Shown here piece after piece: positions 29,797 to 57,856 of a DNA stretch of 64,000 bases; positions within the stretch are counted from its first letter, which is position 1; every line of letters begins with the position of its first letter. The notes under the pieces are model-generated. The model made no database searches. It saw nothing but the letters and a program-made list of their open reading frames with translations, and was not told where the DNA came from. Source of the stretch: an uncultured Bacillales bacterium (GTDB lineage: Bacteria; Bacillota_I; Bacilli_A; RFN20; CAG-826); the NCBI GenBank assembly GCA_947302535.1, contig CAMYVX010000003.1:6593-70592 (forward strand), in the 5' to 3' direction. The position numbers were made by a program, and so were the translations under genes.

Positions 29797-30708
29797 CTAA
29801 AAGTTTTGACAAGCCTCTTCTATCTCATCAATCAGTCTTTCAACATCCTCTAATTCCACACCCATCTCTAAACAGCGAGAGGCTAAATCAATATCTGGTT
29901 CGCTTTTTAAATAACGATGGGCTTCTTCAATTAACGCCACTATCATTTCTTGGGTGTATTCGTGATCATAAACAGGGTAGTTATATATAATATAAGTGGC
30001 ATGTAACTGCATCGCTGTTTCTAATAAAGAAGGATTCTTAAAAAGAGCGGTTAATCTATTGGTGAAATAATTGAATTCGTCTCCAGTAAAAGGTTGTTCT
30101 AATTCTTTTGGGATAACTTCAAGTATTTCTCCTTTATGGTTGAATTTCACTTTTTTATCAATCTCTTTGCTAACAAATACTAGCAAGGTAAAGGAACGAA
30201 CTGATTGGACCTTATGATAAATCATAAGATTGCATAAAGTATCATAAAAAGGAATAATATCTCTATTTCTTGCAATATCTAGTGCAGGGACAACATCATC
30301 AATATTCGAGGATTTCAATAACCCATTTAGTTCTTCGTTAGTAATTCCTTTTTCTTCTGTAAGTCTCTTTCTTTCTTCGGCCCGTATATAATTTGGTAAA
30401 GAAGCGAGTAATTCTTCGACTTCCTGGCTTTCATACGGAAGGTTTTTGTAATATTCAAGTTCAGTAAATGCTTCATCAAAATATCCTAATGTACAAAGGA
30501 GTTCTAAATGTATTTTTATAAGGATAGAGAGTCTAGTTTCAAGTATTTTTCGATGACGATGAATAACAAGAATTGCCTCATCTCCACGGTTAAGCGCGGT
30601 CAAAGCTGCAATACGATAAAATAAGTCGGTCGCAGTTTCACTTTTTTCAGTTAGTTTAACAACCAATTCATATTGTTTTTTATCCATCAAACTTTTTAAA
30701 CTGTCCAT
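29797..30708 (-). CDS. Hypothetical helical (TPR-like) protein, possibly YsoA-like
   Basis: 303 aa all-helical composition; position upstream of tig as ysoA in Bacillus. No motif recognised. Confidence 0.45.
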   Translation of the reverse strand: MDSLKSLMDKKQYELVVKLTEKSETATDLFYRIAALTALNRGDEAILVIHRHRKILETRLSILIKIHLELLCTLGYFDEAFTELEYYKNLPYESQEVEELLASLPNYIRAEERKRLTEEKGITNEELNGLLKSSNIDDVVPALDIARNRDIIPFYDTLCNLMIYHKVQSVRSFTLLVFVSKEIDKKVKFNHKGEILEVIPKELEQPFTGDEFNYFTNRLTALFKNPSLLETAMQLHATYIIYNYPVYDHEYTQEMIVALIEEAHRYLKSEPDIDLASRCLEMGVELEDVERLIDEIEEACQNF

Positions 30709-31696: not shown

Positions 31697-32347
31697 ATGA
31701 AAATACTTATTGGCGAGAATAATCGCGAACTTCTTCATACCCTCCAAAGGGGATTAGACCACTATCAAATGACCTCTGATATTGTTTTTGATGGGGTCCA
31801 AACATTAGAAAAGTATTCAAATAATAAATATGATTTATTACTTCTTGATGATTCTTTAGCAAGGATATCCGGAAATGATGTTAGTAAAGAAATAAGAGAG
31901 AATAATAAAACCATTTCTCTTATCATCATGAGTAATCAAAGTGAAATTAGTGAAAACATACTTCTATCCAATTCGCATGTTGATGATTTTATCACTAAAC
32001 CATTTAAGCTCATCCAACTTGTAGAAACTATCAATCTATTAACTGCCTTAAAAGGGAAAGGAAAAGATATCCATCTAGGGGATTTCCTTATCAAACAGAA
32101 TTACCTAGAACTAGAAAAAGATTCTTCGGCAAAGATTATCTTACATGAATATTACATTATTTCTTCATTAGAAGAAAAATCATATATAACCCACGAAGAG
32201 TTATTAAAAAGATGTCCTAAAATTCAAAAGGGAAGATTGGAATTATTCATCAAAACTATCAATATTAAACTCCATAACATCGGTTCATCATATGAAATAA
32301 CTTTCGAAAAAGGGAAAGGATTCAAATTGGCAAAAATTCATGATTAA
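31697..32347 (+). CDS. OmpR-family response regulator with atypical receiver (Asp-Asp pair replaced by Asn-Asn)
   Basis: 216 aa; receiver has LLLLDD (acceptor Asp), S at the Thr87 position and TKPF Lys, but N-terminal GENN where the E-D-D acid pocket is expected. C-terminal winged helix. Confidence 0.8.
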   Translation: MKILIGENNRELLHTLQRGLDHYQMTSDIVFDGVQTLEKYSNNKYDLLLLDDSLARISGNDVSKEIRENNKTISLIIMSNQSEISENILLSNSHVDDFITKPFKLIQLVETINLLTALKGKGKDIHLGDFLIKQNYLELEKDSSAKIILHEYYIISSLEEKSYITHEELLKRCPKIQKGRLELFIKTINIKLHNIGSSYEITFEKGKGFKLAKIHD

Positions 32348-33569
32348 AAAACTACGTTTCAAATTTATCTTATATTCGGTATTATCGGTTTTTGCTTTAC
32401 TTGTTCTCATTCTCAGCACGATTAATATCGTGAATTTCAATATGGTGGCTTCTGATGCTGATAATATAACTCAAATGATCGCGGATCATGATGGCGGATT
32501 TGAGCCCAATAAAGAAAGGGAACCTAGACCCGGAAGTATGGGTCCAGATTCACCTGATACTCCGATGAGTACTAGATATTTCACTGTTCGTCTTAGTAAA
32601 AACGAAGATATTGCCTATGAGCTCATCCATTACAATATCTCTGCTTTAAGTAAAGAGACTTGCTTAAAATGGGCCGAAGAGTTATCAAAGAACAAAGCTA
32701 AGACTGGGTGGAAAGATTTCTCTTACCGCTATCGTCTTTATGACGATAAAAATAACAAAGATGTCTCTTACGTCACTGTTATTGATCAAGGAAGAGAATT
32801 GTTACCATCTTTACGCGTTCTTATCGCTTCAGTTATTGGAGGAGTAAGTGGAACACTGATTACCTTCTTAGCCATTCTTCTAGTCTCTAAAAAGTTCATT
32901 AAACCAATTGAAGATACTTATCATAAACAACAACGCTTTGTTGCCGATGCTTCCTATGAATTAAAAACTCCTTTAACTATCATCTCCATGAATAATGAAA
33001 TATTAGAACTTGAACAAGGAGAAAATGAAGAATGTAAAGCTATCTCTAAAGAGATTAAACATTTAAACAAAGTATTAGATAATCTTGCTAACTTAGCTTT
33101 ATTAGATGGAACGCTTCCAGAAAAGATAAATAAAAATAACTTTGTTATTTCTGACTCTGTTAATCAAATCGCAGAAAAATACATCTCTTCATTTAATAAG
33201 TTACATAAGAAATTAGATGTAAATATTGTCCCTGATTTAGTCTATAAAGGCGATAAAGATATGATTATGCAATTAATCGATATTCTTTTAGATAACGCTT
33301 TAAAATATTCAACTAGCGAGGCTTCCTTAGATCTTCGTAGAGAAGATGAAAGAATTATCATCATTCAAACCAATGATAGAAAAGACATTAAAGACGGGCC
33401 ATTAGATATCGTCTTTGAAAAATTCTATCGTTTTGAAGCTGACCGTAATAGCAAAGTCGATGGCAGCGGTCTTGGTTTATCCATCGCTAAAGATATTGTA
33501 AATCTTCATAAAGGTCGTATTTACGCGAAAGGAAATGAAGGCAAGTTCATCATCAAAGTTGAACTTTAA
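32340..33569 (+). CDS. Sensor histidine kinase-like protein with H-box His replaced by Tyr
   Basis: 409 aa; two TM segments flanking a ~130-aa extracytoplasmic domain; H-box reads ADASYELKTPL (consensus S-H-E-L-R-T-P-L); N box LLDNALKYS and G2 GSGLGLSIAK present; 8-nt overlap with the RR gene. Confidence 0.8.
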   Translation: MIKKLRFKFILYSVLSVFALLVLILSTINIVNFNMVASDADNITQMIADHDGGFEPNKEREPRPGSMGPDSPDTPMSTRYFTVRLSKNEDIAYELIHYNISALSKETCLKWAEELSKNKAKTGWKDFSYRYRLYDDKNNKDVSYVTVIDQGRELLPSLRVLIASVIGGVSGTLITFLAILLVSKKFIKPIEDTYHKQQRFVADASYELKTPLTIISMNNEILELEQGENEECKAISKEIKHLNKVLDNLANLALLDGTLPEKINKNNFVISDSVNQIAEKYISSFNKLHKKLDVNIVPDLVYKGDKDMIMQLIDILLDNALKYSTSEASLDLRREDERIIIIQTNDRKDIKDGPLDIVFEKFYRFEADRNSKVDGSGLGLSIAKDIVNLHKGRIYAKGNEGKFIIKVEL

Positions 33570-33596
33570 TATCAATATTAAAAGAAAGGAATAGGC

Positions 33597-34319
33597 ATGT
33601 CAGACGCGATCACAGTCATGAAACGTGTGGAACTTAAATATATCTTGTCTAAACAGCAGACAGATTATTTAATCGAGCATTTAAAAGGACATATGGAAGT
33701 TGATCAATATGGCTTAACTTCTATTGCCTCGCTTTATTATGATACGCCTGACTATCGTTTAATTCGTACCTCAATAGAAAAACCGAAGTTTAAAGAAAAG
33801 ATCCGCCTTAGGTCTTATGGTCTAGCTACAGAAAAAAGTAACGTCTATCTTGAATTAAAAAGGAAATATGATGGAATCGTTTATAAACGACGAGCGGAAA
33901 CGACTATTCCTGCAGTTAAAGCCTTCTTCAACGGAGAAGGAGATATATGCGCTAATGGGCAGATAGCCAAAGAAATTACTTATTTCCGAGATTATTATAA
34001 AAATCTAGTCCCCTCATGCTTAATCATATACGATCGAACCGCTTATATAGAAAAAGAAGGGGACTTAAGGCTCACCATCGATGCTCGTCCTAGATATCGA
34101 GTTGAAGACTTAGTATTAACTAAAGATATGGAAGGAATACCACTTTTACCAGAAGGGTGTTGTATCCTCGAAGTTAAAGTACAACAGGCTTTGCCTCTAT
34201 GGCTTATCAAGATATTTAAAGAAGCAGATATTAAAATCAATACTTTTTCTAAGTATGGAGAAGCATATAAACAACAAATGAACAAATTAGTTTCAGAAAG
34301 GATTATCAATTATGTTTGA
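33597..34319 (+). CDS. VTC-domain (polyphosphate polymerase / triphosphate-tunnel-like) protein
   Basis: 240 aa; N-terminal RVELKYIL...LYYDTPDY pattern characteristic of bacterial VTC-domain proteins; basic residues throughout. Confidence 0.7.
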   Translation: MSDAITVMKRVELKYILSKQQTDYLIEHLKGHMEVDQYGLTSIASLYYDTPDYRLIRTSIEKPKFKEKIRLRSYGLATEKSNVYLELKRKYDGIVYKRRAETTIPAVKAFFNGEGDICANGQIAKEITYFRDYYKNLVPSCLIIYDRTAYIEKEGDLRLTIDARPRYRVEDLVLTKDMEGIPLLPEGCCILEVKVQQALPLWLIKIFKEADIKINTFSKYGEAYKQQMNKLVSERIINYV

Positions 34320-35004
34320 ATCAGTATTCGCTAATAACACCGACGTCGCACTCGTATTTGCGATGGCAGGAATTGCCGTAGTTATTGGTATCTTATCAAC
34401 CTTCTTATTCTCTTTAAGAATTCGTTCTACCGCCGGGTTCTTTGTAACAGCATGTTTATTACCGCTTGTTGTCTCACTTGCTATTTGCTTAGTAGGAGCC
34501 TTCTTACAAGGAGCCACCAGTGTGACAGCAAGAATAGTAACTATCGCTGTGGCTTTAGGATTAATTAGATTTAGAAGCGCTCAAGGAAAAGCGGAAGAAT
34601 TATTAGCCCTTTTATCAAGTGTTGTAATTGGTCTAATCCTTGGATTAGGTTTCCTCCTTTTAGGTGCTATATTTGGTATTGCTATTCCTATAGTCTTCTT
34701 ATTGGTTAGTTATTTACCATTCTTTGAACACAAAAGATTTGCTAGAGAAAAATTATTAAAGATTACTATCCCTGAATCTTTAGATTATTCTGATGTCTTT
34801 ACTGCTACTTTTGATCACTATTTAAAAGAAGTCGAATTAGTGGAAGTTAAGACTACTGGTATGGGTTCTATGTTTAAACTCTCATATCGAGTCGTTATGA
34901 AAAACCAAAAAGAAGAAAAAGAAATGATTGATGAACTCCGTATTAAAAACGGTAATTTAGAGATCTCTTTAGTCCCATATAGTGAACCTCTTGGAAAACT
35001 ATAA
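34312..35004 (+). CDS. DUF4956-family membrane protein (usual partner of bacterial VTC proteins)
   Basis: 230 aa; four N-terminal TM helices plus soluble C-terminal domain; 8-nt overlap with the VTC gene. Confidence 0.65.
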   Translation: MFESVFANNTDVALVFAMAGIAVVIGILSTFLFSLRIRSTAGFFVTACLLPLVVSLAICLVGAFLQGATSVTARIVTIAVALGLIRFRSAQGKAEELLALLSSVVIGLILGLGFLLLGAIFGIAIPIVFLLVSYLPFFEHKRFAREKLLKITIPESLDYSDVFTATFDHYLKEVELVEVKTTGMGSMFKLSYRVVMKNQKEEKEMIDELRIKNGNLEISLVPYSEPLGKL

Positions 35005-35018
35005 TAGGAGGTAATTTT

Positions 35019-36695
35019 ATGAAAAAAAGCCTATTTTTAGCCACTTCTTTACTTTTAACATCCCTTTTAGCGGGTTGTGGCTGTAACGCTAATTCAAGCA
35101 AAAGTAATGACGATGATGATAGCCAAACAGTCGATGTCGTCACACCAGACGAAGATATGTTTGGTGACGCTGATAAAAAGATTATTGATTCCGTTGATAC
35201 CGTAATTACTTTAAGCGATAGCGGTGCTGATATTTCTGGAAGCACAAGTGGAGCTTCCTATTCTTCAAATCTCGTTACTATCTCTTCTCCAGGGTATTTT
35301 GAAATAACTGGAAGTAGTAACAGTGTCACCATTCTCGTTAATGATTCTTCAAAGAAAGGTAATATCTATCTTCTTTTAAACGGGGTCTCTATTACTTCAT
35401 CTAGTAAGGCTTGTATCCTCATTAATTCCGCGGATAAAGTTCTTATCCAACCAAAAGAAGGAACAATTAATAAGTTAACTAGCACTTTTACTAGTTCTTA
35501 TTCCTATGGATCTACTAATGTGGACGCAACCGTCTATTCTCGCGATACAATAACATTCTCTGGAAACGGAGATTTAACCGTTACCGGACAATTAAAGGCC
35601 GTTGAATCTAAAGATGATATGCGTATATATGGAGATGGAGGTTTTATCTTTACTTCTAATAAGGATAAATGTTTAAACATCAACGATTCAGTTCGTATCG
35701 GTGGTAATCCTGGTGTATATGTGAACGGAAATGAAGACGGCATTCATGTTGAAAATTCTAGTGGGGATAGTTTCTTCTATATGGAATCTGGCACATTAAC
35801 CATTAATGCTTCATATGACGGTATTGATGTTTCTACAGAGGCCACAACTTTCTCTGGCTATACGAAATTAGTCGCAGGAACAATAGATATTGTTACTACT
35901 TCAACTTCTTCAAGTGCATCAAGAAAAGGAATTAAATGTTTAGGCGATATCTATGTTGGCAAAATGGATATCACCATTAACTCTAAGGATGATGGCTTCC
36001 ATAGCGGCGCTTCTATTTCCTTTACTGATGGAACTTATGATATTTCAAGCGGAGATGACGCTATTCATGCGGATAATACTTTCCATATGTCCGGAGGAGC
36101 AGCCGTTGTCAATAAAGCTTCTGAGGGCGTTGAAAGTAATCATGTTGATATCGTTGGAGGCTCTCTTACTATTTATTCCTCTGACGACGGTATAAACGCT
36201 TCTAAAAAGATAGATGAATCACCAACAATCAAAGTTACTGGTGGCTATTTAGATATTACGGTTGGTTCTGGGGATGTTGATGGTATTGATTCTAATGGTA
36301 CCTTCACTCAAACAGGAGGCGTTGTTATTACTAGAGGCGCTCCTAATTCTACAGGCGGAACCGCCACTGGTATTGATACTGATGGCGGTATCAATCTTAG
36401 TGGAGGCACATTTATTTGTGTTGGCCCATATGAAGGAACTTTAACCAAAGACAGTGGAGTTTATGGATTTGGTTTAGGTACAACTACTGGTGGACCTGGT
36501 GGAGGTCCCGGAGGACCAAAAAGAGCTAGCAGTATTACCTTAACTAGCGGTACTTGGACCGTTTCAGGAATTGATATTAGTTTTGCTATTACAGGAAACT
36601 ATTACGGTATCAGTGTTTATTCTTCTGATTTCTCAAGTGGATCAACTTATACCGTTTCTAGCGGTTCTTCTTCCTATTCAGGAACAGCCTCATAA
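35019..36695 (+). CDS. Secreted lipoprotein with repetitive Ser/Gly/Thr/Asp-rich beta-rich domain (carbohydrate-binding-domain-like)
   Basis: 558 aa; lipobox LLAGCGC; recurring GxDxxGxxT-type segments; GGPGGGPGGP low-complexity stretch; RBS taggagg. Confidence 0.65.
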   Translation: MKKSLFLATSLLLTSLLAGCGCNANSSKSNDDDDSQTVDVVTPDEDMFGDADKKIIDSVDTVITLSDSGADISGSTSGASYSSNLVTISSPGYFEITGSSNSVTILVNDSSKKGNIYLLLNGVSITSSSKACILINSADKVLIQPKEGTINKLTSTFTSSYSYGSTNVDATVYSRDTITFSGNGDLTVTGQLKAVESKDDMRIYGDGGFIFTSNKDKCLNINDSVRIGGNPGVYVNGNEDGIHVENSSGDSFFYMESGTLTINASYDGIDVSTEATTFSGYTKLVAGTIDIVTTSTSSSASRKGIKCLGDIYVGKMDITINSKDDGFHSGASISFTDGTYDISSGDDAIHADNTFHMSGGAAVVNKASEGVESNHVDIVGGSLTIYSSDDGINASKKIDESPTIKVTGGYLDITVGSGDVDGIDSNGTFTQTGGVVITRGAPNSTGGTATGIDTDGGINLSGGTFICVGPYEGTLTKDSGVYGFGLGTTTGGPGGGPGGPKRASSITLTSGTWTVSGIDISFAITGNYYGISVYSSDFSSGSTYTVSSGSSSYSGTAS

Positions 36696-36711: not shown

Positions 36712-36742
36712 ACAAAAGCGCTCATTTTGAGCGCTTTTTTGT
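36712..36742. terminator. Bidirectional rho-independent terminator
   Basis: Hairpin aaagcgctcattttgagcgcttt flanked by an A-run and a T-run; sits between convergent genes. Confidence 0.7.
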
Positions 36743-36960: not shown

Positions 36961-37550
36961 TATGCATTAATGTTTTTACCATCTAAAGCGAGATAAAAAT
37001 TGACTCTTGTTGCTTGATGATAAGGAATAACCCAAAGAACACCAAAACCGAAGCAAAGCATACCAACGATATACCAGCCTAAGAAACTTAAATCTAAAAT
37101 GAATAATTCAAATTTATGGCCGTACATCATTTGTCTAGATTTTTCATGAGCTTGTCTCCAATCAAGTGAAGGATCTTCTAAAAGAAGATATTGGCTCATG
37201 GAATAGGAATAGGATTTAACAATTCCAGGAATGACAAATAAAAGTGACCATAACATAATGAAAATCATTTCTAAGAAACCCAATAAGAAAGAATCTTGGA
37301 ATCTTTCAGAAAAGGCAGAAAAGACATCATTAATAAGAGGTTCTTGTTTCTTGTGAAGTTTAACAAAGTATTTTATTAAACCATAGGTAAGTGGCCCCAC
37401 TAAAAGGAAGAAACCAATAATGGTATAAACTGATAAGGATAATAATAAATTAGAAATTAAGCACATTAGCAACGCTAATAGCCATGGTTCAGCAAAAATA
37501 TGAATTAATTCATTTCTTGCTTGTTGTTTTAAATATGGACGATCAATCAT
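36960..37550 (-). CDS. Integral membrane protein (possibly DUF975-like)
   Basis: 196 aa; four or five predicted TM helices; overlaps the P-type ATPase stop. Confidence 0.4.
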   Translation of the reverse strand: MIDRPYLKQQARNELIHIFAEPWLLALLMCLISNLLLSLSVYTIIGFFLLVGPLTYGLIKYFVKLHKKQEPLINDVFSAFSERFQDSFLLGFLEMIFIMLWSLLFVIPGIVKSYSYSMSQYLLLEDPSLDWRQAHEKSRQMMYGHKFELFILDLSFLGWYIVGMLCFGFGVLWVIPYHQATRVNFYLALDGKNINA

Positions 37551-40224
37551 CGACTTTTAATCCCCTTTCTTTTAATTGTTCAACTTCTAAAGCATATTTT
37601 CTTTCTAACCCTTTGTTAATAGCCCTTAATAAGACAATATAAATTGGAAGAGCAATAACAAAGAAGATTAATATGACTAAGAAGTTATAACCGTTACTGA
37701 AGAAACTTTGTACCGCACTGGAATTCCATGGTTGGAAGAATTCACGGACAATTGGCCAGTTACCAATACTATCTTTACCACCTGCATCAATTACTGCTTG
37801 TGGAGTTCTAAAATGGCTTGGTGGTAATGGTTGGCCCATTAAGAATGTTGTTGGTAGCATCATTGATAAACCAATACCAGTAAAGGCGACGCCTCCTAAA
37901 ACGAACCATCTCCATTTATTAAATGGAATACACATAGCAACGGTAACAATAACACCGGCCATGACGAGCATAAGAGTCATTAATGAATGAGCGTCAGTTT
38001 CGCTGATATGAGGTGCATAAATACCAGTGACAACTTCTTTATAGAAGAGAACGTGGTTCACACCCATTGTGTGAATAATAACAGGAATAACAATTGCTAA
38101 AGCCGCTAATAATCCACTTGCTAGAGCTTTACGAGCAATGTTATCAATAAACTTACCTCTAATTGGTAATTTCGCTCCTTCAAGAGATAACAAGAAGCCG
38201 CCAGTACCAATAACTGTAGATTCTAATAAATAAGCGTTTTCCACTGTGTACCACATTTGACCTTTCTTAAATGGAATTAAGGCAAATGCTAAAGTGATAA
38301 TAGCAATAGTCTTCATTAAGAAGAGGATAGAAGTTCTTTGGATGTTATTAATAACCCTTCTTCCTTGTCCCACAACTTCTTTTAGGTGTGAGAAATCATT
38401 ATCAAGTAAAACGACATCGCTACAACTCTTAGCAGCGTCTGTAGCTTTCGCGAATGTAATAGAGGAATCGGCCTTTCTTAACGCTAAGATATCGTTAACA
38501 CCGTCTCCAGTCATCGCCACTTTATGGCCTTCACTTTGTAAAGCTTCCACTAAAGCTGCTTTTTGTTCAGGAGAAACACGAGCAAAGATTGTATATTCTT
38601 TGGCAACTTCTTTAACTTTTTCTAAAGGCATACCCTCTAAGGAAATAGCCTTATCCGCATTTTGAATACCACATGTTTCCGCAATTTTAGAAACAGTTAA
38701 TGGGTTATCACCGGAAATAACTTTGACGTTCACCGCATTATCACGGAAGAATTTTAGTGTTTCAGGCGCGGACGCTCTTATTTGATCTTCAATAACAAAG
38801 AACGCTAATAAATCATCATTGAGTTTAAAAGCGATAACACGTTTACCTTCTTTAGCTTTTTCTTCAACAAAGGCTAAACGTTTATCATTCTTTTCTAAAA
38901 GGTATTCAGGTGCACCTAATGTTAAGGTATCACCATTTTCATAAATTAAACCACTAGATTTCTTTTCACTAGAGAATGGTAAATATTGTTTAAATTTAAC
39001 ATCTTTATTTTCACCAAATGCATTAAATAATGCATCAGCGGTTTGGTTTCTATTGTCCATCGCTCCAAGAAGGTTTTTAATATGATCATAAATATCTTCT
39101 AAGTGAGCAAATCTTTCCACGTGCACTAATTTCATCGTGCCATCGGTTAATGTACCAGTTTTATCTAAACAGATAGTATCAACACGAGAAAGATTCTCTA
39201 AAGAGTATAACTGTTGAATTAAGGTATTTTGTCTAGACAAGGAGGCAATAGAAATCATTAATGTGACAGAAGTAGTAAGAATTAAACCAGATGGAATAAT
39301 GCCAATAGCGAAACTACCCGCTGTAATCATGATTCTCGCCCACGTAACTGGACTATCTAAGGTAAGAGTCATACCATCCCATATTTCGGGCACAGAACCA
39401 GTTTTATTAATCTTATAGACCAATGTTCCGATAATTGTAGCGGTCACAATTAATAAAACGATAGACAGAACCTTTAAAATTTTAGTAATATCGCTCATTA
39501 ACTCTGATTTATGAGAGCCAACACTTTTAACTTTTCTTTGAAGTTCAGATACATAAGTATCTTGACCAACTTTTTCAACACGTGCTTTGGCTTTTCCAAC
39601 AATAATCGCAGAACCAGAATAAACTAAATCTCCTGGCATCTTTTTGACATGATCAGCTTCACCAGTAAGCATAGATTCGTCGACATGTAAGTTACCTTCA
39701 AGAACAATCATGTCGCAAACAGCTTGTTCACCCGCTTTTAAGCAAACGACATCATCAGTAACAATAGAAGCAGATTCAATTTCTTCTTCTTTACCGTTAC
39801 GAATAACTCTAGACTTCATAGAAGTCACAATCTTAAGTTTATTTAAAACATTACGGGAATGAATCTCTTGAATTGTTCCTACAGTCACATTCATTAATAA
39901 AGGAATTAAGAATATGAATTTTGAGAAACCAAAATGCTTATCAATAACATCTTGATTGCCTGTGCTACTTAAATAAATAATGAAGACTAAAAAGATAATC
40001 GCGATAATGAAAAGCAAGCAGTTAAATAATGTAAAAACATTATCAAAGATAATCTTACCGATACTTTTGGTTTGAGTATCTTTAACAACGTTGACATATC
40101 CTTTGGCTTTTCTTTCATTCACCTGTTCGTCATTTAAACCAAAATCAGGTTTACTTTCAACACGATCAAGAGCTTCTTTCTCTAAAATCTTAGCCATAGT
40201 AATACTCTCCTTTGATGAAGTCAT
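37543..40224 (-). CDS. Cation-transporting P-type ATPase (P2-like)
   Basis: 893 aa; phosphorylation motif CLDKTGTLT, hinge TGDGVNDILALRKAD, ten predicted TM segments. Confidence 0.9.
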   Translation of the reverse strand: MTSSKESITMAKILEKEALDRVESKPDFGLNDEQVNERKAKGYVNVVKDTQTKSIGKIIFDNVFTLFNCLLFIIAIIFLVFIIYLSSTGNQDVIDKHFGFSKFIFLIPLLMNVTVGTIQEIHSRNVLNKLKIVTSMKSRVIRNGKEEEIESASIVTDDVVCLKAGEQAVCDMIVLEGNLHVDESMLTGEADHVKKMPGDLVYSGSAIIVGKAKARVEKVGQDTYVSELQRKVKSVGSHKSELMSDITKILKVLSIVLLIVTATIIGTLVYKINKTGSVPEIWDGMTLTLDSPVTWARIMITAGSFAIGIIPSGLILTTSVTLMISIASLSRQNTLIQQLYSLENLSRVDTICLDKTGTLTDGTMKLVHVERFAHLEDIYDHIKNLLGAMDNRNQTADALFNAFGENKDVKFKQYLPFSSEKKSSGLIYENGDTLTLGAPEYLLEKNDKRLAFVEEKAKEGKRVIAFKLNDDLLAFFVIEDQIRASAPETLKFFRDNAVNVKVISGDNPLTVSKIAETCGIQNADKAISLEGMPLEKVKEVAKEYTIFARVSPEQKAALVEALQSEGHKVAMTGDGVNDILALRKADSSITFAKATDAAKSCSDVVLLDNDFSHLKEVVGQGRRVINNIQRTSILFLMKTIAIITLAFALIPFKKGQMWYTVENAYLLESTVIGTGGFLLSLEGAKLPIRGKFIDNIARKALASGLLAALAIVIPVIIHTMGVNHVLFYKEVVTGIYAPHISETDAHSLMTLMLVMAGVIVTVAMCIPFNKWRWFVLGGVAFTGIGLSMMLPTTFLMGQPLPPSHFRTPQAVIDAGGKDSIGNWPIVREFFQPWNSSAVQSFFSNGYNFLVILIFFVIALPIYIVLLRAINKGLERKYALEVEQLKERGLKVDD

Positions 40225-45871: not shown

Positions 45872-46981
45872 TTAGTCTTTGTTATAAATCAAATTATAGA
45901 TGATATCCATGCCATAGATTCTCGAGAAATCGTTATAGCATTCTTTAAGCGCGCTATTCTCGGTAGCGGTTTTTTCAATAAACGCTTGAGCGTTAATATC
46001 AGTGGAATTCATCTTTAAGCCAGTAAAGAATGCTTCAAATAATAGTCTAACCCTATCTTTGCTCATGGATTTAGCTTTATAGAAAGTATCATTGATAAAC
46101 CAAGACCAAGCATCAATACGTACTTCTGTTCCATCATCTAAATAAGAATAGCCATCAGGGTGAGTAGCGTCTTTATATAGACGAGTAGAAGAAGAAACGC
46201 AGAATTTTCTCCATTCCTTAATGCTGTTATTCACTACTTCGACATAATCATATTCAATAACGTATGGTTCTCTCATGTATGTGAGTTCGTGTTCGTCATT
46301 ATCAGTTTTCATCCTCATCATATAAGTAGGAGAAGCACTATTCATATCGTAATCAAGATCCATGTGGATATACCAAACTGTATGTCTAGTCTCCGCACCT
46401 TTACTTAAATTAATATTGAAAGAAACATCCGCGGTAATAAAATCAGTATCGTCAATATCAATATCTATTGATAAACCAAAGGAATAGTTGACTTTATTCT
46501 CCTCTTTTCCGTCTAATATCTCTCCAGTATTTAAATCAAAATAAATAACACCAGTGATATCGTAATAATACTTAGTTCCTAAGGAGTAGTTATCCCCAAC
46601 CTTATCTAAGACCGCATTTAAATAACGGAATTGAATCATTGGCGGTTGGTCATATGAAAGTCCTTCAATGCTGTGGCCTCTAATATCTTGATCAGTAAAA
46701 GTAGAAAGGATAGTGTCTAAGGCTACTGGATCATCATCAATTTTGCTTGCTTGGCCACCAGCATCTTCACCTTCATAAGCGCGATTAAGTCTATTGCCTC
46801 CAGAATATTTCTGGAAAGAAGTATCCACCCCTTTAAAAGCGTATTTCACTTTCTCTAATTTGCTTGTTGGTGTGGAAGGTGTGGGACTAGGAGTATCTCC
46901 GCCTTCGTTTTTATTACCACCACAACCAGTAAGTAGCAAAGAAAGAGTCATAAAAGCATAAGCAAATGGTTTCTTTTTCAT
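45872..46981 (-). CDS. Lipoprotein, unknown function
   Basis: Start moved to ATG 46981 (MKKKPFAYAFMTLSLLLTGCGG lipobox; RBS ggagg). The ORF-track 5' extension to 47086 would overlap the upstream gene. Confidence 0.6.
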   Translation of the reverse strand: MKKKPFAYAFMTLSLLLTGCGGNKNEGGDTPSPTPSTPTSKLEKVKYAFKGVDTSFQKYSGGNRLNRAYEGEDAGGQASKIDDDPVALDTILSTFTDQDIRGHSIEGLSYDQPPMIQFRYLNAVLDKVGDNYSLGTKYYYDITGVIYFDLNTGEILDGKEENKVNYSFGLSIDIDIDDTDFITADVSFNINLSKGAETRHTVWYIHMDLDYDMNSASPTYMMRMKTDNDEHELTYMREPYVIEYDYVEVVNNSIKEWRKFCVSSSTRLYKDATHPDGYSYLDDGTEVRIDAWSWFINDTFYKAKSMSKDRVRLLFEAFFTGLKMNSTDINAQAFIEKTATENSALKECYNDFSRIYGMDIIYNLIYNKD

Positions 46982-47075
46982 AAATTGCCTCCAAGGGAAT
47001 GTTCTAACTTCATAATAACAAATAAATAAGTAATAAACAAAAAAAGAAAAGAACGAATTAAAAGATTCGCTCCTT

Positions 47076-48407
47076 CTAGATATCACTCACTTCCCCTAAA
47101 TAATAAGAATTAAGCCATGTTTCTCTATCTTTAAGCCAATTAATTAAATAATCAACTTGACCGTCAAAACTCTTAATCTTCATGACCGCGCTTGGCTCAC
47201 GATTAATCTTTTTAGAAAAGATTTTCCATCTAGTAAAGTTCTCCAGGAAGTCATCGTGATAGGTTTCTCTCATATAATCGATATGCTCAATTGTTTCATC
47301 AATATAGTCTTTGATAGTAAAGAATCTTTCTTTAACCATATCATTAAACCAAGAACACTCTCTTAATAAGAGATACCAGCTATGTTGTTGCATATATCCT
47401 TGGAAATAATCATTACCAACATAGGTATACTTATTTGAACTAAACTTACTATCTTTATTATCACTATCGGCGTTGCCGCTTGATAAATCAAAATCCCAGA
47501 CTGGGCCAAAATGTAACTTACCACCTTTAGGTTTAGTGTAATAAAAGCTACCCCAGCCAACATCAAGGTTCTTAAATACTTCTTCTACGAGATAGGCATC
47601 AATCATAGATGGTAAATCAATTAAAGAAGATATTTCATCTTTATTACCACTTTGAATGGCATAGTAACAGTCATTCATATAACTCTTAAGAAAATTAAGT
47701 TGTGATTTATTAACATAATCAGATTTAACTTCATATGTTTCATAATCATCAGTTTCAATAACATCTTCCTTCGCGTTCTTATCAAGTTCTAAAAGATAGC
47801 CAATATCATCTTGCTCACCACTATCATCGATATCAACACGGTTCTTATTCACTTGGATTTGATCACACAGTTCATAAACACCTTGATATTTATCATTAAG
47901 ATAAAGTTGAACAAAACTAGAAGAAGAAACAAAAGGTAAATTGCCTAACTTATAAGCGAAATAAAAGGCGGCATCACTTCTTAATAAAGACTTGTCGCAG
48001 TGGAGTGCAAGTAAAGTCCAAGATTTAGCTTTTCCTTTGCCTTGACCTAATGGCTGATATTTTTCATTAAATTTAATACGATAAGACTTCTTCTCGGTTC
48101 CACTCCAAGAGTAGTTACCTCTACCTCTAATACCTAAAGATAAATCTTTATCATCATATTTTCCGGCGTTATCAATGTTCATTAAGGCATTAACATAGAC
48201 TTCCTTAGAATTAATAGGAGCCCCGCCTTCAGTGTTGATTGAAAATTTAGGTAAGCCCACTATTTCCTCTTCTTCCTCTTCAGGAATTGGGTCGAAAATC
48301 TCTTCTTCTTTTTCTTCCTCGCTAGATGGGTCTACTTCCTTTTTTGAACAACTTGTAAAAAGAAGAGAAGATAACAATAAAAGCAAAAAGAATTTATTTT
48401 CTTTCAT
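47076..48407 (-). CDS. CotH-kinase-family lipoprotein
   Basis: 443 aa; lipobox LLFTSCS; CotH motifs IRGRGNYS...KKSYRIKF and YYTKPKGGKLHFGPVWDFDLSSG; acidic low-complexity linker after the lipobox. Confidence 0.7.
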   Translation of the reverse strand: MKENKFFLLLLLSSLLFTSCSKKEVDPSSEEEKEEEIFDPIPEEEEEEIVGLPKFSINTEGGAPINSKEVYVNALMNIDNAGKYDDKDLSLGIRGRGNYSWSGTEKKSYRIKFNEKYQPLGQGKGKAKSWTLLALHCDKSLLRSDAAFYFAYKLGNLPFVSSSSFVQLYLNDKYQGVYELCDQIQVNKNRVDIDDSGEQDDIGYLLELDKNAKEDVIETDDYETYEVKSDYVNKSQLNFLKSYMNDCYYAIQSGNKDEISSLIDLPSMIDAYLVEEVFKNLDVGWGSFYYTKPKGGKLHFGPVWDFDLSSGNADSDNKDSKFSSNKYTYVGNDYFQGYMQQHSWYLLLRECSWFNDMVKERFFTIKDYIDETIEHIDYMRETYHDDFLENFTRWKIFSKKINREPSAVMKIKSFDGQVDYLINWLKDRETWLNSYYLGEVSDI

Positions 48408-48882
48408 CTTCTCTTAACTCCATCATATTGATGTGACAGTATCCATGAGGATTCTTATCTAAATATTTTTGATGATATTCTTCCGCTAAAAAGTATTTAT
48501 TTAAAGGTAAGATTTCAATCTTATGATTAACTAGATTAATAGAGTGAAAATAAGATAAAATCTTATCATTATCCATATCATCTAGATAATAAATACCGCT
48601 TCGATATTGGATTCCTTCATCTGCTCCTTGTTTATTTAAGGAAAAAGGATCCACCACTCTTAGATATAATTCAAGTAGTTTTTCTAAAGAAATAATATTT
48701 TCATCATAATCTATTTTGACAGTTTCAGAAGCATCATCTAATCCACTTTTTAGATCTAAATAAGTAGGATTATCCAAGTGACCATTCGCGTAACCAGAAC
48801 AAGTAGAAATAACTCCCTTAACTAAAGAGAAATATTTTTCTACTCCCCAGAAACATCCACCTGCAAAATAAATCGTCTTCAT
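48394..48882 (-). CDS. msrA: Peptide methionine sulfoxide reductase MsrA
   Basis: 162 aa; catalytic GGCFWG motif at the N-terminus; no signal peptide; 14-nt overlap with the CotH-like gene. Confidence 0.9.
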   Translation of the reverse strand: MKTIYFAGGCFWGVEKYFSLVKGVISTCSGYANGHLDNPTYLDLKSGLDDASETVKIDYDENIISLEKLLELYLRVVDPFSLNKQGADEGIQYRSGIYYLDDMDNDKILSYFHSINLVNHKIEILPLNKYFLAEEYHQKYLDKNPHGYCHINMMELREDERK

Positions 48883-48920
48883 AATGAGATATTATGGACC
48901 AACTTATTTTAATAAGCAAA

Positions 48921-49262
48921 TTATGCATATAAAAGAATTAACAAAGTAAATAATTGACTATGAGTTAAAAACCCATCGATCTCATAACGATAAGGACCAC
49001 AGTAGTCTCTAATCTTACCGTTCTCTACTTCAGCGATATATGGGCCACAATATCTTCTTAGTCTTCTACCATCAAATTCTAAAATATAAGGCCCACAATA
49101 TTGTCTAGCTCTATTCCCTTCAATCTCGTAGCGGTAGGCTCCACAATATTCTCTTATTTTATAACCATTTATTTCATATCTATATGGCCCACAATATTCC
49201 CTAATACGATTACCATCAATCTCTAGAATATAGCGACCACAATATTCTCTTACTCTTGCCAT
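48921..49262 (-). CDS. Small protein of six tandem 16-aa Cys-containing repeats plus hydrophobic C-terminal tail
   Basis: 113 aa; repeats (R/K)IREYCGPYRYEI(D/E)G(N), one Cys each, six in total; C-terminus LFTLLILLYA hydrophobic. Confidence 0.5.
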   Translation of the reverse strand: MARVREYCGRYILEIDGNRIREYCGPYRYEINGYKIREYCGAYRYEIEGNRARQYCGPYILEFDGRRLRRYCGPYIAEVENGKIRDYCGPYRYEIDGFLTHSQLFTLLILLYA

Positions 49263-49319
49263 AATAAAAATCTAGCACACTTTGCTTATTTTACGAAAAT
49301 AATTTAATTATATTGACAG

Positions 49320-52300
49320 TTATTTCTCTTCTTTTCTTTGGAAATAGAAGTATCCAACAACACCTGTTACCGCTAATAAAGAGATAGCAATAATAATGCT
49401 TAAAGATTCACTATTAGAGGTATCAATAATCGGATTCAAAATATGAGAATTAGAAATAACATAATCCCCATTAGAATATGTAATAGTTTTTCCTAAATGA
49501 GTAGCCCAAGCTTGTAATCTAGTTCTTGCTGTAGAGATGACATAATCGCTAGAAGTCATAAATGTTTCTCTTTGAGCAGCAGTCAAACCTTCAAAATACC
49601 CTTTAGCCACACTAAACTTTGTTTCACATTGATTATTTGTATCTTCATACATAATGTAGTTAGCAACATTTAATGCAGTTTCATTACCTGATTCTACTTT
49701 CTTATATATTTCAGTTGTATTACCTGTTGTCGCGTTTGTTGCATAACAACTAAAGATAGAAGGATTGTTATTATAGTTCGATCTAATTTGTCCTCTGTTA
49801 GAGGAGGCTGTAGCTTCAATGCGAGTAACACCATCAGTGATAGTAATGACGAAAGCACCGTTGATGTCATTGTTCTTTTGAGTTTTCAAGTGGTTAGCAT
49901 TAGAAGAAGCGGCGTACAAGAATCCACTACCTGTACTTAAACCAAATGATCCACTTGGTGCGCTAGAGATACCAGAAGTACTAGTTAAAGTTAATTGCTG
50001 AGGAACGTATTCTCCAGTGGTCCATGAAATTGTATTATTTGATTTTGTAACAGAAACAGCACCACGGTTAGAATTTCTTTGCTCATCACTAAGCGCTAAA
50101 TTATTACCGCTATCAGCAATAATAATCATATCTCCAATTTCTAAATCTGAAGCATCTGTCACTTTATTCCAGCTTGCTGTTCCAGTAGGAGTCTCGTAAG
50201 CTTTTCTTTGCACTTGAACAACTAAAGTTGTTTGTAATTCAGAATAAGTGATATTGAATTCTTTATTGGTTAATGAGCCACCACTAGCAGCGTCATTATA
50301 AGTGAATTGATACCCATTATTAGCGAATGTAAAACCTGTTACTTCGTTACCTAAGTTATCTTCGACATAAATATCACTAGTAGAAATACTATCTCCAGGA
50401 TGAAATGTCTTATTAACTGAAGCATAAATCGCGGTGATCTCCGCTGATAAAATTGTAATTGTATAAGTTGCGGTCTTTGTTACTGCATTTTCTGTATAAG
50501 TAACAGTGACTGTCTTATCGCCCACTGTGGACATATTAGGAGTAGAGACATTACTCGGTGTCACTATATCTTCGGTCCCGTTCTCATAATGGGCGGTAAC
50601 CACTAAACCAGAATAGTCAAAAGTATCACCACTATAGAATTCAGTTTGAACATTAGAAGTATTCAAAGTGATACTAGTTAAAGGTGAGGTTCCGGCTGAT
50701 TCAGTGGAATAATAGACCACCACTGAAGTGAACCCACAAGTTCCTCCAATAGTAGCTGATATAACATTAGCCCCATTAGTTGGAGTGACAGTTACTGTTG
50801 TGGTAGAAGCACTCGCACTAGCATTTGTCCAAGTGCTATTACCCAATGCACTAGCATAGTTATTTGATGTTGCAGTAAAAACAATACTCGTAATTGTGTA
50901 ATTAGTCGCAGGAGTAATTTGCAAAGCATTACCAGTATAGAAACGAGATGAGGTTCTATTATTTGCATCTCCGCCTAGATAGTTATTAGCGGCAGTTTTA
51001 CTGCTATCAGTTCTAATAGCTTCCATCGTGGCATAAGAATGACTCCAAGTGACAGAATTTGCTGTCGGATTAGCGTCATATGATGCAATAGCAAGATTCC
51101 AAGTGAAATCACCAGTGGATGAACCTCCTCCACCACCTCCACCAGAAGAATCAGCAACACTGATAGAGGCTGAAGCTGATTTATTACTGTTATAGGTTGA
51201 AGTCGCTGTAACTGTGCAACTACCTTTAGCTTTTGCAGTCACAACACCACTACTAGAGACAGTAGCAACGTTAGTATTAGATGAAGTCCAGTTCACAGTG
51301 GTAGGCGCACCATTAGATACATTAACAGTCGCACTTAAAGTGCCAGAGGTTGTCCCATTTAAGTCAAGACTTAATGAGGAAGGAGAAACACTAACCGAAT
51401 TAACTCTTGGCTCTGAAGAACCTCCTCCCCAAATATCATCGGCATAACCGCTATTGTCAATAAATGGGTTTCTATTACCTTGATAAGTAGCAACTTGTTC
51501 GTTTCTTCTTTGTTCAATCTCATCAACTGGATCAGAAGTATTCCAGCTCAAAAGCATTTCTAAAGCTTTGGCTTCTGTAGATTGATTTGTAATTTTAGTT
51601 AAAGATAATAAGGAAGTAGAGAAATAAGATGAGCTTCCACTTCCGTTCGTAGTTCCATGACTACCAAATAAAGTTGTGACACTATATGAATTATAATGTA
51701 GATACACGTATAAGATAATACGGGCAACATCTCCCTTTTTCGAATCTAATGGTTCAAAAGTACCGCCAGAATTGTAGCCACCTAGAGCATAGGTTGCATT
51801 GGTCCCAAACTTAGCATAAACCTTATAAGAATCTCTATTTGAAATTTCACCGTATTCATTATTGCTACGAGTAGAATTTAATCTCACTTCAGCAGGACGA
51901 AGATGATGCATATCTGCACCACCACCAGTTGTTCCCCACATTTGTGTGCCACTTGTATTAACAGAGTTAGATTGGCACCAACAGTGTTCTCTATTATATC
52001 CACCAGTTGTGCTTCCTGCGGTGGCAGACCAAGCATCAGGCCACTTCACTCCTGAATAAAATTCATAGATATAACCAGATTGCGCAACACCATTCTCATA
52101 ATAACGGTCAGTGTTCTTTTGATAACCATTTGATCCGTTATCATCATAACTTGTGTAATAACGATGTGTTGAAGTGATTAAATCATGTAACTGGGCCGCT
52201 AATTGGGTCCCACTAGTCGCGGTAATCGAATTGTAATAAGTACTGGCGTCAGTAGAATAATTACCAATAGCTTGAGCCTTTTCTATGTTTTTAGCTTTGC

Positions 52301-52376
52301 TAAAAGAAACGGCTAGACCGATAACTAAAGAGGCGCCTAAAAAAGCCACCATGATTTTACTAAAAAGATTTTTCAT
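49320..52376 (-). CDS. Surface-anchored extracellular nuclease (Endonuclease I/EndA family) fused to Ig-like (Big_2-type) domains
   Basis: 1018 aa; signal peptide; EndA-family motifs NREHCWCQS, DMHHLRPAEVRLNSTRSNNEYG, KGDVARIILYVY, YQGNRNPFID; Gly7 linker; Thr/Ser-rich Ig-like repeats; C-terminal TM helix followed by RKEEK. Confidence 0.7.
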   Translation of the reverse strand: MKNLFSKIMVAFLGASLVIGLAVSFSKAKNIEKAQAIGNYSTDASTYYNSITATSGTQLAAQLHDLITSTHRYYTSYDDNGSNGYQKNTDRYYENGVAQSGYIYEFYSGVKWPDAWSATAGSTTGGYNREHCWCQSNSVNTSGTQMWGTTGGGADMHHLRPAEVRLNSTRSNNEYGEISNRDSYKVYAKFGTNATYALGGYNSGGTFEPLDSKKGDVARIILYVYLHYNSYSVTTLFGSHGTTNGSGSSSYFSTSLLSLTKITNQSTEAKALEMLLSWNTSDPVDEIEQRRNEQVATYQGNRNPFIDNSGYADDIWGGGSSEPRVNSVSVSPSSLSLDLNGTTSGTLSATVNVSNGAPTTVNWTSSNTNVATVSSSGVVTAKAKGSCTVTATSTYNSNKSASASISVADSSGGGGGGGSSTGDFTWNLAIASYDANPTANSVTWSHSYATMEAIRTDSSKTAANNYLGGDANNRTSSRFYTGNALQITPATNYTITSIVFTATSNNYASALGNSTWTNASASASTTTVTVTPTNGANVISATIGGTCGFTSVVVYYSTESAGTSPLTSITLNTSNVQTEFYSGDTFDYSGLVVTAHYENGTEDIVTPSNVSTPNMSTVGDKTVTVTYTENAVTKTATYTITILSAEITAIYASVNKTFHPGDSISTSDIYVEDNLGNEVTGFTFANNGYQFTYNDAASGGSLTNKEFNITYSELQTTLVVQVQRKAYETPTGTASWNKVTDASDLEIGDMIIIADSGNNLALSDEQRNSNRGAVSVTKSNNTISWTTGEYVPQQLTLTSTSGISSAPSGSFGLSTGSGFLYAASSNANHLKTQKNNDINGAFVITITDGVTRIEATASSNRGQIRSNYNNNPSIFSCYATNATTGNTTEIYKKVESGNETALNVANYIMYEDTNNQCETKFSVAKGYFEGLTAAQRETFMTSSDYVISTARTRLQAWATHLGKTITYSNGDYVISNSHILNPIIDTSNSESLSIIIAISLLAVTGVVGYFYFQRKEEK

Positions 52377-52741
52377 AAGATTTCCTCAGTTCGTAATGAA
52401 CTTTAAAGAAGAGATATTCCCTACGCTTGGTCAGAGTATCAACAGAAATATCTAATCTCAAACTACCACTAGGGTAGCCACGGTCATCTAACGTTCATAT
52501 AAATTAGACTTAGGCTTACTTTTGGTAAGTCACAAATACTTACTGGTGATAGATAAATCTATTCTTGTTCTCCGCATAGGAGGGAAAGGAAACCAATAGT
52601 ATTTGCCCGAACACATCAATTCTTCATTTATTTATAAAGTATGCACGGGACATTGATGTGTTGAGGTTGATTCTCCTCTTTAAAATTCATTAAAAGGGAA
52701 AAGGGACCCTTAGTTTCCCAAAGGTCCCTAATTATTAATAA

Positions 52742-56641: not shown

Positions 56642-56930
56642 ACCCGTTTTGGTTATTTAGGTTTGTGAGTATGAATAAATATTTGATTAGAACATCAATT
56701 GGTAGGCTTCCAATTACAGCCTATAAGATGACTAATCGAAAATTGTTTGCTCGTTACCTTTTCGAGGGGTAACTCGCAAGATTTGAAAGAAGGTATCTAC
56801 TAAAGAATTATGCATCTATTCTTTAACGATAACTTTTTCAATCAAAGCGTGACGCGGTTTTTGACCTTCTGACCACCAGTCTCACACCTCACACTTATGC
56901 GTATATAATACAAAGAAGAAGAAGAAGAAG

Positions 56931-56957
56931 CAAGCACTCAGTTATATAGAGTGCTAA
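56931..56957. promoter_or_regulatory. CIRCE-like inverted repeat in divergent intergenic region
   Basis: CAAGCACTC-AGTTATATA-GAGTGCTAA, 16 of 18 to the CIRCE consensus; right half is followed by AAGCACTC giving a nested palindrome; overlaps the predicted -35 of the minus-strand promoter. Confidence 0.45.
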
Positions 56958-57809: not shown

Positions 57810-57828
57810 TAAAATAGAGTTAAGATTG

Positions 57829-57856
57829 AAAGTCGACAAACAAGGTCGGCTTTTTT
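57829..57856. terminator. Bidirectional terminator between convergent genes
   Basis: Hairpin aagtcgacaaacaaggtcggctt plus a T-run. Confidence 0.55.

Follow-up and report, generated by a model that had tools for sequence, protein, structure and literature searches.

A conserved VTC-DUF4956 operon with a degenerate sensor pair as a candidate system for membrane-coupled polyphosphate synthesis

The locus described here raises the question of how a bacterium could make polyphosphate (polyP) at its membrane and pass it to the outside. Bacterial polyP is attributed to PPK1 and PPK2, and we found in the searchable literature no explanation of how bacteria place the polymer outside the cell. In a stretch of 64,000 nt from contig CAMYVX010000003.1 of an uncultured Bacillales bacterium (the window, meaning this whole stretch), an operon of five plus-strand open reading frames (ORFs) spanning 31697-36695 encodes a receiver-like protein, a histidine-kinase-like sensor, a VTC-domain protein, a DUF4956 membrane protein and an acidic lipoprotein. 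Our best reading, to which we assign a probability of about 0.4, is that these proteins would together carry out membrane-coupled polyP synthesis with a probable hand-over of the product to the outside, under control exerted by protein binding. This reading draws on sequence comparisons and predicted structures of the following features.

31697..32347, + strand: receiver-like protein, 216 aa (Pfam Response_reg, 60 bits)
32340..33569, + strand: histidine-kinase-like membrane sensor, 409 aa (Pfam HisKA plus HATPase_c)
33597..34319, + strand: soluble VTC-domain triphosphate-tunnel protein, 240 aa, polyphosphate-polymerase-like (PF09359, 133.7 bits)
34312..35004, + strand: divergent DUF4956 membrane protein, 230 aa (PF16316, 20.3 bits, and homologues)
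35019..36695, + strand: acidic Cthe_2159-type beta-helix lipoprotein, 558 aa (PF14262, 183.5 bits, 2 stretches)
36714..36738, no strand: bidirectional intrinsic terminator shared with the convergent downstream genes (hairpin plus T-runs)

The initial annotation had described five same-strand genes with small overlaps and gaps that end at a bidirectional terminator, and all of these coordinates agree with the ORF listing and a hairpin scan. An 8-nt overlap joins the receiver-like and kinase-like genes and another of equal length the VTC and DUF4956 genes, while 27 nt with an AGGA ribosome-binding site separate the kinase-like gene from the VTC gene and 14 nt lie between the DUF4956 and lipoprotein genes. 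The hairpin combines a perfect 11-bp stem (5 G-C pairs), a 3-nt loop and T-runs on both strands, with termination predicted in both orientations, and the convergent genes 3' of the operon comprise a 71-aa ORF, a DUF975 gene and a P-type ATPase gene. A sigma-70 scan upstream of the first gene returned no convincing promoter and fewer sites than shuffled sequence. A reading of the operon as an anti-phage defence system was rejected, as the PADLOC defence models gave only a generic ATPase-domain match for the kinase (28 bits) and none for the remaining four. The scanned window ORFs of at least 220 aa (Pfam/NCBIfam) included neither ppk1 nor ppk2, a result that applies to the 64-kb window and not to the whole genome, and that part of the window ORFs which was scanned with Pfam or NCBIfam yielded no SPX or Vtc1-like protein.

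A Vtc4-like tunnel enzyme and its membrane partner

Judged from its sequence and predicted model, the VTC protein is a soluble triphosphate-tunnel enzyme whose fold and tunnel residues are closer to those of Vtc4 than to those of hydrolytic tunnel enzymes. Its assignment to the VTC family in the initial annotation is borne out by a PF09359 score of 133.7 bits against a cut-off of 23, with positions 2-233 of the 235 profile positions covered, and by a best fold match to yeast Vtc4. A phmmer search against PDB sequences gave marginal matches and a profile search did slightly better. The AlphaFold2 (AF2) model (pLDDT 87.4, pTM 0.81) forms a closed eight-stranded beta-tunnel that is closest to Vtc4 in a Foldseek comparison with the PDB, the top match being the yeast Vtc4 catalytic domain 3g3r_B (E 6e-12, TM 0.73). 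The Vtc4 structures 3g3r, 8i6v_E and 3g3q head the list (E 6e-12 to 4e-11, TM 0.70-0.73), the Vtc4 matches as a whole extend to E 1e-10 and Vtc2 comes next, followed at E 1e-7 and worse by YgiF, CYTH cyclases, archaeal triphosphate tunnel metalloenzymes (TTMs) and thiamine triphosphatase. Vtc4 is thus ahead of all hydrolase and cyclase TTMs by about four orders of magnitude in E-value.

The residue correspondence with Vtc4, obtained from hidden Markov model (HMM) alignments and one fungal fragment rather than by superposition, places R70/R72 at Vtc4 R264/R266, E86/K88 at E279/K281 and E192/K194 at E426/K428 in the profile alignment to 3g3q. A homologue search with a Vtc4 fragment returned exon-sized fungal pieces only, among which P0244 supplied the beta1 strand; its first strand reads R-Q-T-T-K-Y-W-V, and the window sequence R10-V-E12-L-K14-Y15 corresponds to Vtc4 R196-x-T198-x-K200-Y. 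In a published cryo-EM structure, Vtc4 carrying R264A/R266A/E426N constitutes the catalytically impaired complex (PMC9911596), and the catalytic residue of Vtc4 is Lys458 (Martinez et al., PMC4641920). Its likely counterpart by sequence is K219 in an invariant F-S-K219-Y motif, which the printed alignment does not include. R70, R72, E192 and K219 are conserved in 141-144 of 144 sequences. In 143 VTC representatives with 34-57% identity to the window copy, R10, E12, K14, R70, R72, E86, K88, K90, K97, R98, R99, R147, R158, D162, E192, K194, S218 and K219 are invariant or nearly so. The tunnel appears intact and very basic, which is consistent with binding of a long polyanion.

Some of these positions also bear on the chemistry of the enzyme. 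Hydrolytic TTMs carry ExE in a metal-binding strand, with a Glu two residues after the metal-binding Glu, where K194 sits in the window protein. Four Glu form an acidic patch and second metal site in the hydrolytic enzymes where Vtc4 has chain-guiding basic residues (PMC4641920). Of the positions that could be mapped, two are basic as they are in Vtc4 (R196, K428): R10, which takes the place of the first Glu in the canonical ExExK motif, and K194. The invariant E12 aligns with Vtc4 Thr198 and with the second Glu of the hydrolytic TTMs, and hydrolytic or two-metal chemistry therefore has to be weighed. One alternative is that the VTC protein acts as a hydrolase- or cyclase-type tunnel enzyme for a small phosphate signal, in a module with a pseudokinase and a pseudo-receiver. 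The E12 position and the tight linkage of the VTC gene to signalling-type proteins would fit such an enzyme, as would the functional diversity of the TTM superfamily, in which a strong structural likeness of AtTTM3 to Vtc4 was no predictor of polymerase activity (PMC4641920). We nevertheless regard it as improbable given the wide lead of Vtc4 over the hydrolase and cyclase TTMs, the two acidic-patch positions that are basic as in Vtc4, and the invariant basic run K88, K90, K97, R98, R99, R147 and R158, which fits the guiding of a long polyanion.

The gene after the VTC gene encodes a protein that scores 20.3 bits against PF16316, below the cut-off of 30.6. All 26 aligned homologues (52-85% identical) match this family at E<=1, the best at E 4.3e-11, and carry the NCBI name DUF4956; on the strength of these sequences we accept the window protein as a divergent DUF4956 member. 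Five helices are predicted in its AF2 model (pLDDT 76.5), at 12-34, 41-65, 71-83 (short), 94-111 and 115-134, followed by a beta-alpha-beta-beta-alpha-beta domain at 146-222 that is ferredoxin/ACT-like. In the homologue alignment the loop between the third and fourth helices is invariant (G83-L-x-R86-F-R88-S89, then E96), as is a glycine-rich hairpin in the soluble domain (K180-T-T-x-M-G-S186) that resembles phosphate-binding loops, a resemblance and nothing further. If the basic stretch after the last helix is placed inside, both features would face the cytoplasm, where the exit of the VTC tunnel could dock. The soluble domain gave weak Foldseek matches in the PDB to ribosomal S6, PII/GlnK, ACT and the NikR C-terminal domain (E at least 3e-3), and the weak ACT match agrees with the homologue from S. 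intermedius, which has been described as a membrane protein whose C-terminal part is an ACT domain (10.1101/2024.04.20.589940). An MgtC-like relationship, which would likewise combine a membrane domain with an ACT-like domain, was dropped after none of the 26 homologues showed a Pfam MgtC match at E<=1.

Conservation of the operon in rumen and distant Firmicutes

A scan of one genome per species with the VTC alignment yielded 527 confirmed relatives, and the rumen counts given here refer to the best 80 of the 527, in whose loci the neighbouring genes were identified by tblastn with the five window proteins. All 80 are metagenome-assembled genomes (MAGs) from the rumen or other ruminant gut, labelled Clostridia, Lachnospiraceae, Oscillospiraceae, Ruminococcus, Bacilli, Acholeplasmatales or Erysipelotrichaceae. 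A kinase-like gene lies directly upstream of the VTC gene at 74 of the 78 loci with enough sequence, and a DUF4956 gene directly downstream at 70 of 72 informative loci. A Cthe_2159 homologue stands within the module at 15 of 31 fully covered loci, upstream of the receiver/kinase pair in 12 of them and downstream, as in the window, in 3. When 860 neighbouring ORFs from 81 non-redundant loci were clustered all-against-all, only the five operon families recurred, the next clusters being antisense artefacts. The five-gene arrangement is far beyond chance, and the linkage ranks with the firmest that comparing genomes can provide. The gene order that the initial annotation had treated as a single system is, by these fractions and by the distant operons described below, conserved well beyond related genomes.

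Identity to the window copies falls from 65-73% for VTC to 42-62% for DUF4956, 30-44% for the kinase-like protein, 24-38% for the lipoprotein and 19-34% for the receiver-like protein. The same loci (L010, L021, L029, L051, L052 and L063) are nearest for the kinase-like protein and for DUF4956, and the module therefore appears to travel as a unit; among the closest matching operons is that of an Acholeplasmatales MAG (L052), with the gene order of the window. The level of VTC identity across classes within this ruminant-gut set suggests lateral spread and a niche-specific benefit. Closer to the window, an identical DUF4956 protein with the same operon in the same chromosomal context occurs in ENA assemblies, and three Logan assemblies carry the same operon with proteins 95-99% identical to those of the window. 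Close strains at this level of identity also have an extra AAA_14/DUF4143 ATPase gene just after the operon, with the lipoprotein gene on one side of it and the 71-aa gene on the other (L001 13285-14646, L002 7295-8656); the window does not have it, which marks a strain-level indel at the terminator region.

Many rumen Clostridia have a longer form of the locus, consisting of a canonical response regulator (RR), a canonical histidine kinase (HK), a Cthe_2159 lipoprotein, a pseudo-RR, a pseudo-HK, VTC and DUF4956 (L004 2633-9386; also L008, L012, L014-L017, L022, L031, L038, L041, L044, L057 and L080). The degenerate pair in this form seems to have arisen by duplication of the canonical pair, whose working version remains upstream. 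The window holds only the degenerate pair locally, whereas the longer-form loci hold both.

Beyond the rumen set, the VTC family is large: clustering at 50% identity leaves 7,735 representatives at E<=1e-3, of which 977 reach E<=1e-30. The best 150 of them are stand-alone proteins of 123-351 aa. Two cluster representatives (L093, L094) lie in operons with the order of the window, RR-HK-VTC-DUF4956-Cthe_2159, and a third (L092) in the rearranged order VTC-DUF4956-(70 aa)-Cthe_2159-RR-HK. Paenibacillus cellulosilyticus has VTC-DUF4956-Cthe_2159 beside a divergent HK-RR pair, and an E. faecalis plasmid has VTC-DUF4956-RR-HK-CotH, with CotH in the place of the lipoprotein. Acetoanaerobium noterae has RR-HK-VTC-DUF4956 followed by a phospholipase D (PLD)/cardiolipin-synthase-like gene (PLDc_N plus two PLD motifs; L087 8513-10069), and Pseudobutyrivibrio xylanivorans pNP95 has CotH-VTC-DUF4956 within an exopolysaccharide cluster (RefSeq annotation). 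The general formula is a two-component pair, VTC, DUF4956 and an extracytoplasmic protein, either Cthe_2159 or CotH. Six of seven contexts outside the rumen set have such a partner, the exception being Acetoanaerobium, and so do roughly half of the rumen loci with full coverage.

Related cassettes have been noticed before. CotH, a poly-phosphate polymerase, DUF4956 and DUF4832 form an accessory group beside Gram-positive pel operons (Whitfield et al., bioRxiv 10.1101/768473), a preprint on S. intermedius treats these proteins on the basis of models without settling on a role for them (10.1101/2024.04.20.589940), and the C. perfringens NELoc-2 locus contains two VTC-type genes and CotH, with the VTC-DUF4956 pairing present (PMC11677781). 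The initial annotation had presented bacterial VTC-DUF4956 pairs as functionally uncharacterised and the locus as its best candidate for an undescribed system. The first point stands, as no functional study of a bacterial VTC-DUF4956 pair was found in the searchable literature, but the pairing itself is not undescribed, given its report beside pel operons. In the searched literature we found no account of a five-gene version with both a sensor pair and a Cthe_2159 lipoprotein, and none of a loss of His from the kinase.

The location of cassettes within exopolysaccharide clusters, and an outside partner whose place can be taken by a secreted kinase (CotH) or a PLD-type phosphotransferase, would also fit a role in the envelope, in which the system takes up external polyP and runs backwards to ATP, or supplies phosphoryl groups to a surface glycan or protein. 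The structural relationship of the beta-helix family to polysaccharide-binding or lyase folds points the same way. The operon, however, has no transporter-like fold or ATPase, its sequences show no sign of a glycan or lipid acceptor site, and the proposal adds steps with no additional evidence, so that we consider such a role highly improbable.

The lipoprotein and the former two-component pair

The last gene of the operon encodes a protein that matches PF14262 (Cthe_2159) with 183.5 bits in two stretches and the solved founding member 4peu_A at E 3.7e-18 over residues 73-291. It begins with the signal peptide MKKSLFLATSLLLTSLLAGC and has a lipobox, LLAGC, with the Cys at residue 20; by pattern, 27 of 34 operon-linked homologues also have a lipobox. 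The mature window lipoprotein has an isoelectric point (pI) of 4.24, compared with 4.05-4.55 among the 27 homologues, and contains repeated DG[IF][DH] motifs. Where the initial annotation saw a repetitive secreted lipoprotein, the lipobox Cys20 upholds the lipoprotein, and the protein proves more than merely repetitive, as it belongs to a beta-helix family for which a structure has been solved and carbohydrate binding reported. The frequency of an extracytoplasmic partner, and the fact that 27 of the 34 operon-linked homologues are lipoproteins by pattern, argue that the output of the system lies outside the cytoplasm.

These features also bear on a second alternative, a cytoplasmic polyP synthase that is tethered to the membrane and exports nothing, with DUF4956 as an anchor or metabolite-sensing regulator and the lipoprotein as a separate, co-regulated carbohydrate or fibre binder. 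Cytoplasmic retention was preferred by the S. intermedius authors on the grounds that other subunits of the VTC complex are absent (10.1101/2024.04.20.589940). The membrane part of DUF4956 has no channel-like fold match, its ACT/PII-like C-terminal domain is typical of ligand-sensing regulators, and Pfam calls the Cthe_2159 family carbohydrate-binding, all of which would suit a tethered enzyme. A purely cytoplasmic product leaves unexplained, however, the frequent membrane-anchored or secreted partner, the location of the cassette inside exopolysaccharide and pel clusters, and the fact that the extracytoplasmic loop of the kinase is its most conserved part, and we hold this alternative to be unlikely.

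The kinase-like protein has two transmembrane helices, at about 10-33 and 160-183, that flank an extracytoplasmic loop of about 125 aa. This loop is the best-conserved part of the kinase family (motifs GPMGP-SPE, RYFT, GWT---YRYRVY and VTVIDQGRE) and has no Pfam match. The protein keeps its N-box, F-box and G2-box, and over its whole length it can be aligned with a canonical HK linked to the operon (28% identity, E 1e-49). Its H-box, F-V-A-D-A-S-Y-E-L-K-T-P-L-T (given as FVADASYELKTPLT), places Tyr206 at the phospho-acceptor position. By sequence it is a member of the same family as the canonical operon-linked kinases of other Firmicutes in which the phospho-acceptor His has been lost. A sequencing error was rejected as the source of the Tyr, which recurs in three other assemblies at about 98% identity. 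Among 71 VTC-adjacent orthologues the acceptor position holds K in 29, R in 13, N in 10, S in 7, H in 4 and Q in 3, the remainder being Y, F, D or other residues; the surrounding F200, E207, P211, L212 and T213 are conserved. The nearest relatives have His at L010, L021 and L051 and Y, F or D elsewhere, and we therefore conclude that His was lost repeatedly. Many of the same loci have a second, distal kinase that reads S/G-H-E-L-K-T-P together with a standard OmpR-type regulator, and the VTC-adjacent kinases of the distant operons keep His, with the canonical pattern S/G/A-H-E-L/I-K-T-P throughout.

The receiver-like protein is degenerate in a comparable manner. D51, S79 and K101 are present, and E7-N8-N9 stands in place of the acidic pair, which is A-P/S in most members of the family; of 63 receiver orthologues, 41 keep D51 and 5, the window protein included, keep K101. 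About a third of the family consists of receiver-only proteins of about 125 aa. No Trans_reg_C winged helix was found by Pfam in the full protein or in residues 118-216 at E<=10, and BLASTP against the canonical operon-linked RR aligns residues 1-112 only. The sole hint of a winged-helix remnant is a weak full-length alignment to NCBIfam TctD (67 bits against a cut-off of 337), and the C-terminal stretch of about 100 aa is, by its sequence, not recognisable as an OmpR-type winged helix.

Control of the operon by a His-Asp phosphorelay is not credible on these sequences, because Tyr occupies the acceptor position, the acidic pair is absent and no DNA-binding domain is recognisable; the two proteins would represent a former two-component system. 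Of the sensor pair under envelope-signal control that had initially been annotated, the kinase and receiver homology holds and the phosphorelay falls away. Caulobacter DivL is a pseudo-histidine kinase that has Tyr for the phospho-acceptor His and signals by protein binding, and by this analogy signalling by binding would be the natural alternative to phosphotransfer. The repeated loss of His with the sensor loop kept may offer a clean natural case of a histidine kinase becoming a pseudokinase.

The remainder of the window contains several further features. The P-type cation ATPase gene lies just downstream of the operon (37543-40224, minus strand), and two Ca/Mg-type P-type ATPase genes flank the A. 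noterae operon (L087 836-3484 and 10255-12909). A conserved link, which would suggest a tie between polyP and cations, was rejected when this family proved not to recur in the 81 clustered non-redundant loci. A 900-aa SecDF-like protein (13975-16677, minus strand) has its best match in the mycoplasma-type SecDF model NF046001, which hints at a Mollicutes-related, possibly wall-less, Bacilli host lineage. The closely matching operon of the Acholeplasmatales MAG (L052) agrees with such a host, which appears to be a Mollicutes-like member of the Bacilli. For a run of large ORFs of 404, 443, 1018, 1299, 337, 460 and 426 aa at 45872-62174 on the minus strand, NCBIfam gave no match at E<=1e-10. Between the trigger factor and YggS genes lies a 303-aa ORF (29797-30708, minus strand) that has no Pfam match even at E<=10 and is conserved in contigs of related strains (L001 6205-7116).

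Proposed function and comparison with known systems

Together, these observations suggest a sequence of steps for membrane-coupled polyP synthesis. Docked on DUF4956 at the cytoplasmic side of the membrane, the VTC protein would polymerise the phosphate of ATP, and the cytoplasmic ACT-like domain and RFRS loop of DUF4956 would receive the chain. DUF4956 oligomers could then hold the chain or thread the polymer across the membrane, by analogy with the coupled synthesis and translocation of the eukaryotic VTC complex. At the outer face the acidic lipoprotein may handle the product, probably through Ca2+/Mg2+ bridges, and the kinase-like sensor and its receiver-like partner would tune the system by protein-protein contacts, as DivL does, and not by phosphotransfer.

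A more ambitious version treats VTC plus DUF4956 as a PPK-independent synthase-exporter, a third route to polyP, that would thread the polymer out during its synthesis for organisation at the surface, with feedback from the sensor that does not involve phosphotransfer. Once outside, polyP could be organised by beta-helix lipoproteins that are acidic and bind cations, or it could serve the secreted CotH kinases, and in biofilms of the pel type it might act as a cross-linker of the cationic Pel polysaccharide. The condition of the external polymer would be sensed by the kinase-like protein, which would feed back on the enzyme. We put this version forward tentatively and, taken as a whole, find it doubtful.

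Several observations weigh against membrane-coupled synthesis with hand-over. The membrane part of DUF4956 found no Foldseek match in the PDB, including the Vtc1/3/4 channel (membrane chains of 7ytj and 8i6v), and no VTC-DUF4956 fusion occurs among the best 150 VTC representatives. An acidic lipoprotein of pI 4.2 cannot, judging by its composition, bind the polyanion polyP directly and would need cation bridging, and Pfam describes the Cthe_2159 family as carbohydrate-binding. The third partner is not constant (Cthe_2159, CotH or PLD-like), and the extracellular step may differ between operons. To these are added the invariant Glu at position 12 and the alignment-based mapping onto Vtc4, while the searched literature yielded no biochemical or functional study of any bacterial VTC protein.

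If active, a VTC-type enzyme with its own membrane partner, in a family of 7,735 cluster representatives, would constitute a separate polyP route and possibly a secretion route. It would also provide a function for DUF4956, for the pel-adjacent cassette and for the cassette in the virulence-associated locus of C. perfringens.

These pel-adjacent and NELoc-2 cassettes share with the window the VTC-DUF4956 pair, likewise uncharacterised and likewise with a secreted partner. The window differs in having a Cthe_2159 lipoprotein instead of CotH, in including the kinase-like and receiver-like pair in the operon and in having no polysaccharide genes nearby, and its VTC protein is only 27-36% identical to the copies in these cassettes. 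Cthe_2159 of Clostridium thermocellum (PDB 4peu/4phb) belongs to the same PF14262 family as the window protein, which differs from it as a strongly acidic lipoprotein of roughly double the length whose gene lies in a VTC operon. DivL resembles the window kinase in its otherwise well-preserved HisKA/HATPase_c region, its Tyr at the His position and its receiver-domain partner. The two have no sequence relationship beyond the kinase fold, and the window kinase is set apart by its conserved extracytoplasmic loop and by a family that has lost His repeatedly to varied residues (Y, F, D, K, N, R, S).

The CYTH-CHAD tripolyphosphatases of the E. coli YgiF type (PDB 5a60) also pair a bacterial tunnel enzyme with a polyP-related partner module (PMC4641920, PMC6537752) and form the next-best fold class for the window VTC protein after the Vtc proteins. 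They have an acidic ExExK patch and hydrolyse tripolyphosphate, whereas the window protein reads RxExK, has Lys at the ExE position, lacks a CHAD domain and has a membrane protein as its partner. The eukaryotic VTC complex (PDB 3g3q/3g3r, 7ytj, 8i6v) shares with the window the PF09359 family, a fold match at TM 0.73, the Arg-x-Arg, Glu-x-Lys and Ser-Lys tunnel residues and an enzyme encoded with a dedicated membrane partner. The window protein consists of the VTC domain only (240 aa), with neither the SPX domain nor the C-terminal VTC1-type transmembrane domain, and has E12 where Vtc4 has Thr198. The membrane partner in the window is DUF4956, with five helices and an ACT-like domain and no detectable similarity to the Vtc channel, and regulation would run through a kinase-like sensor rather than through inositol pyrophosphates.

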